16,560 bases of DNA. It comes from a virus (taxonomy: Duplodnaviria; Heunggongvirae; Uroviricota; Caudoviricetes). Below are positions 6,001-9,000 of the stretch, piece by piece. Each line of letters begins with the position of its first letter. The first letter of the stretch is position 1. The stretch covers positions 1 to 16,560 of the IMG/VR virus record IMGVR_UViG_2718218139_000004. One strand, 5' to 3'. The position numbers were made by a program.

Positions 6001-9000
6001 TTGGTACTGACTGATGGCGCTCTGGTCTGCGGCATTGTGGTATTGCTGTGGCCGATGATGAAAGAACAGAATGAATAATTCTTGACTTTTTTGTTTACTG
6101 TTTATTAAAAAATCAACCGCATGGTGAATCCTCCTTGGAGGGGCTAAATGATCGAGTTTTAAGGGCACGTAGCGAGTTCTGTTTGATCATTGCAGAACTT
6201 AGCGGGAGGCGCCATGCGTACATCACTAGTGTTATTCCTTTTATCATTTTCCTTGTGAGTTCTGGCTGCGCATTGCGCAGCCTTTTTTTTATGACCTGCC
6301 ACTGGCAGATGGTCATCCTGTGATTTGATTCCGGTTCCGGCTTTTTAACTCTGTTCCTGTACACGGGAGAAATTCGATGTCGATTAAACATTACGATGTT
6401 GTCAGGGCGGCGTCGCCGTCAGACCTTGCGGAAAAGCTGACACACAAACTGAAAGAGGGCTGGCAGCCATACGGCGGACCGGTTGCCATTACGCCGTACA
6501 CACTGATGCAGGCGGTGGCTATTGAAGGAGAGCCACAGGTCGGCCCTTCTAACCTGTATTTCAAAATCAGAGAGGACCGTCGTAAGGCGGCGCGGGGAGA
6601 GTAAAGCGATGAAGAAAAAATACGAACTGGTTGTTAAAGGGATAAATAATTACCCGGATAAGATTACTGTTACTGTGGCACCGGAAATTGGTGGGTATCC
6701 GTCACTGTTGTTGCCAGATGTGGCGATTAGTCTTGACCGTACTGAAGGAGCCACGCTGGAGTTTTACGAAGCTGAGGCGAAAAAGCAGGCGAAGCAGTTT
6801 TTCATGGATGTTGCTGCCGGGTTATGTGAAGGGGATGGTCCGTTGCCGGAAAAGCGGCCCATCATTTTAGAGGCGCAGGACGTGTTGATAACCTACAGAG
6901 GAAAGCTACCGGGAAGAATTACTGGTTCTCTGAAGACGCCACCGACGGCATTGCGGTCAGAAAAAGATGATATTGAATCACGTATTGAACAACTGGAGTG
7001 CTATATCTCTGAATTGAAAAAAGCACCCCAACAAAAGATGAGGTACTTGCATTAGACGAAATGAAAGAAACTATTCTTGATCTTGCGGCGCGTCTAAGCT
7101 GCGCTTCACGGTCGAAAGAGCATTTTCAGCAGCCCTGAGGAATCTTTTATCATCACGAGCATCGGTCTTTGGTATTTCTTTAATGAGATGTTCCATTTCG
7201 GCGATCAGGTAATCTGACACAGCGTTATTCTTACCAAGTGCATCCATGGCTTTGATTATCTTTGGGAGAAGAAAACCGACCTGTAACTCAAGAGTGAAAA
7301 TTCTGTCAAAAAGCGCTGTATTTTCTTCATTCATATCTGTTCATTATCTTTGCGAGGCAGCCATCTCACATTGTTGGGTTTACGCCAGTGCCCACCACCG
7401 GCGGGCTGAAGACTTAACATATCCAGGGGTCCGGAACCGATAAATCCTGATAAATATCCATGAACGCAAAAATCAGATACGGCCTGTCGGCTGCCGTTCT
7501 GGCGCTGATTGGTGCAGGGACGTCTGCGCCTGAAATCCTCGACCAGTTTCTTGACGAAAAAGAAGGTAACCACACCACGGCATACCGTGATGGTGCGGGG
7601 ATCTGGACCATATGCCGCGGTGCCACCCGAGTGGATGGTAAGCCTGTCGTCCCGGGTATGAAGTTATCGAAGGAAAAGTGCGACCAGGTTAACGCCATTG
7701 AACGTGATAAGGCGCTGGAGTGGGTGGAGCGCAATATTAAAGTACCGCTGACCGAACCCCAGAAGGCGGGTATCGCGTCATTTTGTCCTTATAACATTGG
7801 CCCCGGTAAGTGTTTCCCGTCTACGTTTTACAGACGGATTAATGCAGGTGATCGAAAAGGTGCCTGCGAAGCGATTCGCTGGTGGATTAAGGACGGTGGC
7901 AGAGACTGCCGTATCCGCTCAAATAATTGCTACGGTCAGGTATCCCGGCGAGACCAGGAAAGTGCACTGGCGTGCTGGGGAATTGACAGATAAGCAGAAT
8001 ATTTTGCTGAAAAATGACGTTGGCCAACGCGGGCGGATAACACGAAATCCTGCGAACTGGCAAAAACTAAGTGAATAAAAGTAAAACCCCGTTTGTTGGC
8101 TGCAAACGGGGTTTTGTGTTTCTGACCTTGAGTAAGGCAAGGGAGAACATGGGAAAGTATAAACGAATTCTGTTGAGATTGACTATGAAAAACGGCCTTG
8201 AACTGAAAGCGCCTGTAACTGATGACGTCAGCAGAGCGCTGGCTTTTGCTATTAAGTGGGTGGCGGTCGGTATTGCTGTGTCTCCGATGCTGTATGGGCT
8301 GGCAAAACTGGTCATTGCGTTGAAATCGTGAAGAGGATTAAGCATGTCAGACAAGCTCATAACGCTGGCGAAGATCCTCTGTGTAATCGTCGGCATTTCA
8401 TTTTCACTAATGCTGGTTGCTATTTGCTTTTCCACTGCCTGGCGCGTCTTAACTTTGTCATGGCTGGTGGGGTGAGGGGGATATGAACCGTGTTCTGTGT
8501 GTGGTGATTATTGTCCTGCTGGTAGCCTGTGGTGTGCTTAGTCTGGGGCTGAATCATTACCGCGATAACGCCATTACCTACAAAGCGCAACGCGATAAAA
8601 AAGCCAGTGAGCTGAAGCTGGCGAACGTGACAATTACTGATATGCAGGTACGCCAGCGTGATGTCGCTGCACTTGATGCCAGATACTCGAGGGAATTAGC
8701 CGATGCGAGAGCTGAAAATGAAACTCTGCGTGCTGATGTTGCCGCTGGTCGTAAGCGCCTGCGCATCAACGCCAACTGTCCAGGCTCCTTGCGTAAAGCC
8801 CCCATCACCTCCGGCGTGGATAATGCAACCGGTCCCCGACTGGCAGAAGCCGCTGAACGGGATTATTTCATCCTCAGAGAACGGCTGATGGCAATGCAGA
8901 AGCAACTGGAAGGAGCACAGGAATATATCCGTACCCAGTGTATACCGTGATGTTTTGTTATGAAGGTGTTACTGGTAACGTTAAGGTAATTTAACAAAGA

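Follow-up and report, generated by a model that had tools for sequence, protein, structure and literature searches.

An in-frame nanS-p/pinholin fusion reaching into the holin slot of a decayed Escherichia coli prophage remnant, very probably a deletion scar

The window analysed in this study is the whole 16,560-nucleotide stretch of DNA from a tailed phage (Caudoviricetes; IMG/VR record IMGVR_UViG_2718218139_000004, positions 1 to 16,560), and the feature in question is an open reading frame (ORF) encoding 75 amino acids at positions 6377..6604 (+), whose 3′ end lies where a holin gene would be expected in the lysis region. The results of this study demonstrated that this ORF has two parent genes, nanS-p and an S21-type pinholin gene, which meet at a defined breakpoint, that both transmembrane domains (TMDs) of the pinholin were lost, and that the fusion is restricted to one lineage and one chromosomal site, in a decayed element. 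Based on these results, the ORF is very probably a deletion scar, effectively a nanS-p/pinholin fusion pseudogene. A preliminary description of this DNA had proposed that the holin was destroyed by recombination or, failing that, that lysis is now triggered by another protein. The first proposal was supported: holin codons 1 to about 51 were lost, along with nearly all of nanS-p, through an illegitimate deletion.

The ORF starts with ATG, and its translation is MSIKHYDVVRAASPSDLAEKLTHKLKEGWQPYGGPVAITPYTLMQAVAIEGEPQVGPSNLYFKIREDRRKAARGE. Its last 17 residues are the C-terminus of S21, NLYFKIREDRRKAARGE, and this tail occurs in the window as a single copy (6551..6601; tblastn, 17/17 identity, E = 4e-9). 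The 71-amino-acid S21 query was 100% identical over residues 1-71 to Escherichia phage 21 (OL657228.1, 39866..40078), in which the matched feature is annotated 'antiholin' and 'holin class II'; the identity of the tail with S21, as stated in the preliminary description, was thus confirmed. In PHROGs, residues 58-75 corresponded to the end of the holin family phrog_9876 (E = 3.4e-8). The Pfam family Phage_holin_2_1 (P21 holin S, PF04971) matched residues 58-71 with a sub-threshold score of 16.9 bits (cut-off 26), and the match spanned only positions 50-63 of the 64 in the profile.

The N-terminal partner, which had gone unrecognised in the preliminary description, was the DUF1737 domain of NanS-p. 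Pfam placed DUF1737 (PF08410) at residues 4-49 (E = 6.9e-17), and in PHROGs residues 1-57/58 matched the start of phrog_143, a profile of 634 positions, as well as two short DUF1737 families; the match of the ORF to the 67-position DUF1737 family phrog_2036 had an E value of 2.1e-37. Residues 1-58 were identical to the N-terminus of the 617-amino-acid NanS-p in a prophage of E. coli O145:H28 RM13516. The gene annotated 'SASA family carbohydrate esterase / DUF6645' corresponds to nanS-p, which encodes the sialate O-acetylesterase of prophages (PMC10462455). The fused ORF retained the ribosome-binding site of nanS-p (GGGAG, 6365-6369) and its ATG. On the evidence of Pfam, PHROGs and DNA identity, codons 1-58 (6377..6549, +) are the 5′ end of nanS-p with the complete DUF1737 domain. 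The remainder (6550..6604, +), consisting of the last 17 codons and the stop codon, is the 3′ end of an S21-family (class II) pinholin gene, as indicated by DNA identity with strain 377323_2f, the identity of the S21 tail and PHROGs.

No transmembrane segment was found in the 75-amino-acid product. The highest mean hydropathy on the Kyte-Doolittle scale over 19 residues was 0.81, with no stretch reaching 1.6, as compared to 1.72-1.83 for the intact S21-type holins of phage 21 and strain 377323_2f; the earlier statement that the 58 residues preceding the tail are devoid of a TMD is therefore correct. The product is not a pinholin, since the test for TMDs was negative and the Pfam score does not reach the threshold. 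It is not an esterase either, since the catalytic SASA/SGNH and C-terminal domains are deleted and the ORF stops at residue 75. The DUF1737 fragment is probably a complete folding unit, and a folded DUF1737 product is plausible because the fusion is in frame, the ribosome-binding site and start of nanS-p are kept and the break lies near the domain boundary. The claim that the ORF occupies the canonical holin position holds for its 3′ end, which lies in the holin slot, but not for its start, which lies at the position of nanS-p.

The breakpoint was located by comparison with 5426 complete E. coli genomes and a phage collection of 50,697 records. Among the genomes, all matches to the left part ended at position 6549, inside the 5′ end of nanS-p, and all matches to the right part began at 6549, inside a gene annotated 'class II holin family protein', with ydfR, a hypothetical gene and a lysozyme gene downstream of it. 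The left flank (6080..6549) showed 99.6-99.8% DNA identity to nanS-p 5′ ends in hundreds of genomes, and 6200..6549 was 99.4% identical to nanS-p of phage 434; the left-flank modules of O121 RM8352, O145:H28 RM13516 and phage 434 were 99.3-99.8% identical. The right flank (6549..10499) was 99.85% identical to strain 377323_2f from inside its holin gene onward. Intact relatives share the collinear order Q, membrane protein, TciB/DUF3927, (small membrane ORF), nanS-p, class II holin, ydfR, lysozyme and Rz/Rz1, and the portion from nanS-p through holin, ydfR and lysozyme to Rz was seen in O145:H28 RM13516, phage 434 and BP-4795. In the annotation of phage 434, the holin is a pinholin and the next gene a SAR (signal-anchor-release) endolysin, and the order in the Stx1 phage BP-4795 is stx1AB, yjhS, S, ORF47 and R. 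As compared to RM13516, the window lacks 1991 bp (4679..6669 of that locus); as compared to strain 377323_2f and phage 434, it lacks about 2.28 kb, as worked out from annotated gene starts with the same breakpoints. The lost segment comprises NanS-p residues 59-617, the intergenic spacer and holin residues 1-51, including both TMDs.

Alignment with related prophages, which the preliminary description had suggested for finding the recombination point, mapped it to a single base. The deletion junction, CCCTTC/TAACC (6549..6550, +; the slash marks the join), was defined by the breaks in all megablast matches and by a three-way alignment with RM13516, RM8352 and 377323_2f. The parents read ...CCCTTC-ATCTGAG on the left and ...ATCTGAC-TAACC on the right, and the sole base common to both at the join is the C at 6549, a microhomology of 1 nt. 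The hybrid codon 58 (TCT) consists of TC from the nanS-p codon TCA and T from the holin codon ACT, and still encodes Ser58. The two genes lie in different frames in the parents, and the length of the deletion restores the register, an outcome with a one-in-three chance. A hexamer, ATCTGA, lies directly inside both deletion ends (RM13516 locus, 4679-4684 and 6663-6668), and neither copy is left in the window. Slipped-strand deletion between direct repeats was considered and rejected, given that both copies of ATCTGA were lost and the true overlap at the junction is 1 nt; the presence of the hexamer at both ends may be a coincidence.

The fusion was present in 7 of the 5426 complete genomes, and its junction was found in none of the 50,697 phage records (megablast of window 6200..6900). 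In NCBI, the exact 75-amino-acid sequence occurs on 41 contigs under the name 'DUF1737 domain-containing protein', and the full-length ORF is kept in about 76 contigs. The protein cluster at 90% identity contained six variants (F62C, D16G, D67G, S2T/A and I3F; all amino-acid changes, affecting both parts), and since all six share the same GPS/NLY junction, the data point to one event behind all copies of the fusion. In all eight genomic contexts inspected, the ORF lay in one prophage remnant beside mdtA/mdtB that has no head and tail genes, and over its full length the window matched one of these eight loci with 100% identity (coordinates 3625..20184). In RefSeq, the ORF is already flagged by PGAP (Prokaryotic Genome Annotation Pipeline) as a pseudogene, 'DUF1737 domain-containing protein', incomplete and missing the C-terminus.

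The element is a non-viable, decayed E. coli prophage remnant. The immunity and replication region is missing near window positions 2122-2140, and a stretch of about 8.7 kb, extending from the gene for the terminase large subunit to a tail-fibre gene and including the head and tail genes, is missing at 10946/10954 as compared to RM13516. The 3′ end of cif (13240..13986) was cut off by copies of an insertion sequence (IS) of the IS3 family, and related copies of the remnant carry further IS insertions, e.g. in int and, in strain 2013C-4974, between R and Rz. The genes left are those for LpxR, Q, R, Rz/Rz1, PerC, NleH and part of Cif.

Other features of the remnant were as follows. At 1822..2571, a minus-strand DUF550 fragment abuts the C-terminal 143 residues of a Ser/Thr phosphatase at a scar from which the immunity/replication/nin region is absent. 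The loss of the 8.7-kb stretch created a second chimeric ORF (10854..11765), to which the gene for the terminase large subunit contributes the 5′ end and the tail-fibre gene its collagen-like (Gly-X-Y) 3′ part. The IS3-family copies form an inverted pair (14411..15567, −; 15742..16560, +), and the type III effector gene nleH is intact within 12133..16560; cargo genes have outlasted the phage functions. A moron encoding the lipid A deacylase LpxR (2783..3742, −) is situated upstream of Q, an arrangement shared with phage 434 and with the prophages of O121 and O145.

It was hypothesised that the fused ORF arose as described below. The ancestor would have carried a lambdoid late operon with Q, a membrane gene, tciB, nanS-p, an S21-type pinholin gene, ydfR, a SAR lysozyme gene and Rz/Rz1. 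A single illegitimate, microhomology-poor deletion of about 2.0-2.3 kb would then have removed nanS-p from codon 58, the spacer and pinholin codons 1-51, joining the two genes in frame by chance. Transcription of the late operon, if it occurs, would yield a soluble DUF1737 domain with a 17-residue basic cytoplasmic pinholin tail; this product can neither enter the membrane nor form pinholes, so that the cassette has no holin. SAR endolysins without a holin are released slowly and spontaneously from the membrane, resulting in later and more gradual lysis (PMC9239132). Any residual lysis would thus depend only on the SAR lysozyme slowly leaving the membrane of its own accord, in combination with the spanins, and slow, untimed lysis would be expected upon transcription of the operon. 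We infer that the fused product itself has no function and no role in lysis.

Several observations weigh against this hypothesis. The exact prophage before the deletion was present in no sequenced genome: in a search of the complete genomes with a 4-kb query, none reached 99% identity across both flanks, and the closest relative with intact genes was 96.6% identical overall. The best relatives of the left flank (O121, O145 and phage 434) differ from those of the right flank (377323_2f and Stx1a phages), so that two different prophages may have been joined, rather than one shortened by an internal deletion. The reading frame is preserved across the fusion, the ribosome-binding site and start of nanS-p are kept, and the break falls almost exactly at the DUF1737 boundary. 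Besides, Q, R and Rz/Rz1 are still intact, so that the cassette is not fully dead.

The difference between the flanks is an argument for an origin by illegitimate recombination between two resident lambdoid prophages, one contributing the segment from Q to the 5′ end of nanS-p and the other that from the 3′ end of the holin gene to Rz. Against an identity of 99.3-99.8% to the modules of O121, O145 and phage 434, the left flank shows only 92.5% identity to strain 377323_2f, while the right flank, 99.85% identical to that strain, is only 96.2% and then 90.6% identical to RM13516; genomes of the lineage, moreover, contain 14-20 places matching the query, i.e. many lambdoid prophages. However, lambdoid late regions are mosaic, and differing best relatives would be expected from a single ancestor too. 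On either side of the junction, the genes are arranged in exact collinearity with single intact phages, and an event between prophages would rearrange the chromosome, whereas the remnant keeps its int/xis end beside mdtA as well as its nleH/cif end. A join of two prophages is accordingly regarded as unlikely. The holin is lost under an internal deletion and a two-prophage join alike, and the functional conclusion is the same.

The lysis genes R and Rz/Rz1 downstream of the fused ORF are intact. ydfR (6609..7055, +; Pfam DUF1327, E = 3.2e-45) is at its usual position after the holin, as in strain 377323_2f, RM13516 and BP-4795, and has a replaced C-terminus. It is followed by an 87-amino-acid ORF on the opposite strand (7071..7334, −; phrog_18136, unknown function). 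This ORF has a terminator-like hairpin of its own (7048..7021), and the insertion at this place is also present in the holin-intact strain 377323_2f. The RrrQ-type lysozyme gene R (7460..7993, +; Pfam Phage_lysozyme, E = 1.9e-25) has an intact frame, and its product has a SAR-like N-terminus and a catalytic triad, E35-X8-D44-X5-T50, as read from the translation. Residues 7-24 of R are YGLSAAVLALIGAGTSAP, 11 of these 18 being G, A, S or T; the highest 19-residue hydropathy mean was 1.54 (residues 9-27), and R was aligned over residues 11-174 to the structures of full-length R21 (3HDE) and RrrD (4ZPU). The N-terminus is thus only weakly hydrophobic. Pro24 follows the possible cleavage site (TSA motif), suggesting that the signal anchor would remain uncleaved, and these sequence features fit a SAR endolysin. 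The SAR-type lysozyme described earlier as lying downstream of the fused ORF was retained on this basis, but it is not adjacent to the ORF, ydfR and the ORF at 7071..7334 lying between them. Both spanin genes are intact: Rz, for the i-spanin (8483..8950, +; Pfam Phage_lysis, E = 2e-46), and the embedded Rz1, for the o-spanin (8703..8888, +), taken from the ORF list and supported by an Rz1 Pfam match in an identical locus.

Upstream, the Q82-type late antiterminator gene (4217..4906, +) was identified by Pfam (Phage_antiter_Q, E = 1.4e-90) and by the homologous annotation in phage 434. After Q, a consensus scan predicted one site resembling a promoter (4890..4918) and one resembling a terminator (4952..4973), from which the late operon, with the fused ORF in it, would be driven. 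The region between Q and nanS-p (5076..6323) encodes a multi-pass membrane protein of 247-252 amino acids (phrog_1521; TfpB among the precomputed Pfam hits), and the whole module, with this protein, TciB/DUF3927 and a 62-amino-acid ORF, is also found in phage 434.

The presence of a holin elsewhere in the window or of a protein serving in its place was also considered. The N-terminal 51-54 residues of the S21 and 377323_2f holins gave only chance matches (E > 1) to the six frames of the window by tblastn with relaxed settings, and a two-TMD holin hidden in an alternative frame was thereby rejected. Four small ORFs encode strongly hydrophobic segments (highest 19-residue means of 1.9-2.9) and are located in the late operon: a 52-amino-acid TciB/DUF3927 protein (5920..6078; Pfam, PHROGs), a 62-amino-acid membrane protein (6135..6323) whose ORF overlaps a strong terminator (6264..6282) and, between the lysozyme gene and Rz, proteins of 60 amino acids (8149..8331; phrog_1115) and 43 amino acids (8344..8475; phrog_4906), both in PHROGs families of unknown function. 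There is a precedent for a substitute trigger in phage Mu, in which a non-holin 'releasin' frees the SAR endolysin (PMC9239132). However, none of the four matched a holin or releasin (DUF2730) family in Pfam or PHROGs, their assignments being 'unknown function' or TciB, and all four are at the same positions in strain 377323_2f and phage 434, both of which keep a pinholin, which argues that they did not arrive as replacements. Furthermore, a remnant without morphogenesis genes would be under no selection for timed lysis. It is, thus, very improbable that one of these ORFs now acts as a holin or releasin freeing the SAR lysozyme, and the earlier suggestion that a different protein provides the trigger has no support, as the small membrane ORFs are shared with pinholin-keeping relatives, the fusion is in no phage record and the remnant is non-viable.

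A gained function of the 75-amino-acid fusion, either in capsid decoration for co-resident phages through its DUF1737 domain or as a soluble, tail-bearing decoy that shifts the lysis timing of other prophages in the cell, is likewise very improbable. In NanS-p of phi24B (gp84), DUF1737 is reported to be a capsid-decorating domain with a proposed cleavage after about residue 54-57, and the majority of DUF1737 proteins in Pfam are single-domain proteins (bioRxiv 10.64898/2026.04.10.717836). The break at residue 58 almost coincides with that cleavage, a free-standing DUF1737 family exists in PHROGs (phrog_2036), and the ORF has kept its translation signals and its full length in the contigs counted above. 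On the other hand, the differences among the six variants, a very small sample, are amino-acid changes only, spread across both parts, and give no sign of purifying selection; the fusion is limited to one lineage and one decaying element in which capsid genes are lacking, and a join would be in frame by chance in one case out of three. No role is known in the S21 literature for a pinholin tail without TMDs, which also counts against a gained function. An expressed fusion serving co-resident lambdoid prophages, or retention of the holin-less SAR-lysozyme/spanin cassette for slow lysis with release of effectors or toxins, is likewise scarcely to be expected.

Comparison with known systems places the fused ORF between two familiar genes. 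With the S21 pinholin of phage 21 (PF04971, class II) it shares the last 17 residues, a charged cytoplasmic tail, and its 3′ flank with ydfR, a SAR-type lysozyme gene and Rz/Rz1 is the usual pinholin context; TMD1 (the SAR/antiholin helix), TMD2 (the pore-lining helix) and the dual-start N-terminus are all deleted. With the NanS-p 9-O-acetyl sialate esterases (933W L0105, phi24B gp84 and BP-4795 YjhS) it shares residues 1-58, the promoter-proximal context, the ribosome-binding site and the start. NanS-p consists of DUF1737, the SASA esterase and a C-terminal lectin-like domain, and the fused ORF lacks the SASA and C-terminal parts (about 560 residues). The free-standing DUF1737 proteins of phages (phrog_2036, single-domain PF08410) are of similar size and, like the fused ORF, contain the whole domain, but the fused ORF is a truncated nanS-p with a foreign 17-residue tail and not an independently evolved gene. 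Phage Mu, with gp22 and the releasin gp25, resembles the present cassette in having a SAR-type lysozyme and spanins without a holin. Unlike in Mu, there is no Pfam match to a DUF2730 releasin here, and the lack of a holin reflects recent damage to a defective prophage instead of a strategy that evolved.

The ORF at 6377..6604 is thus fused from two well-known genes whose arrangement is equally well known. It is already listed among the pseudogenes by RefSeq and represents ordinary prophage decay. For annotation, the 'DUF1737 domain-containing protein' of this E. coli lineage is to be read as a nanS-p/pinholin fusion pseudogene, and beyond annotation this matters little. In the nleH/cif-carrying remnant, the lysis timer was lost along with the immunity, replication and morphogenesis genes. 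The remnant is an example of effector cargo being kept while phage functions decay, and of deletions producing in-frame chimeric ORFs that resemble new genes when only the sequence is read.

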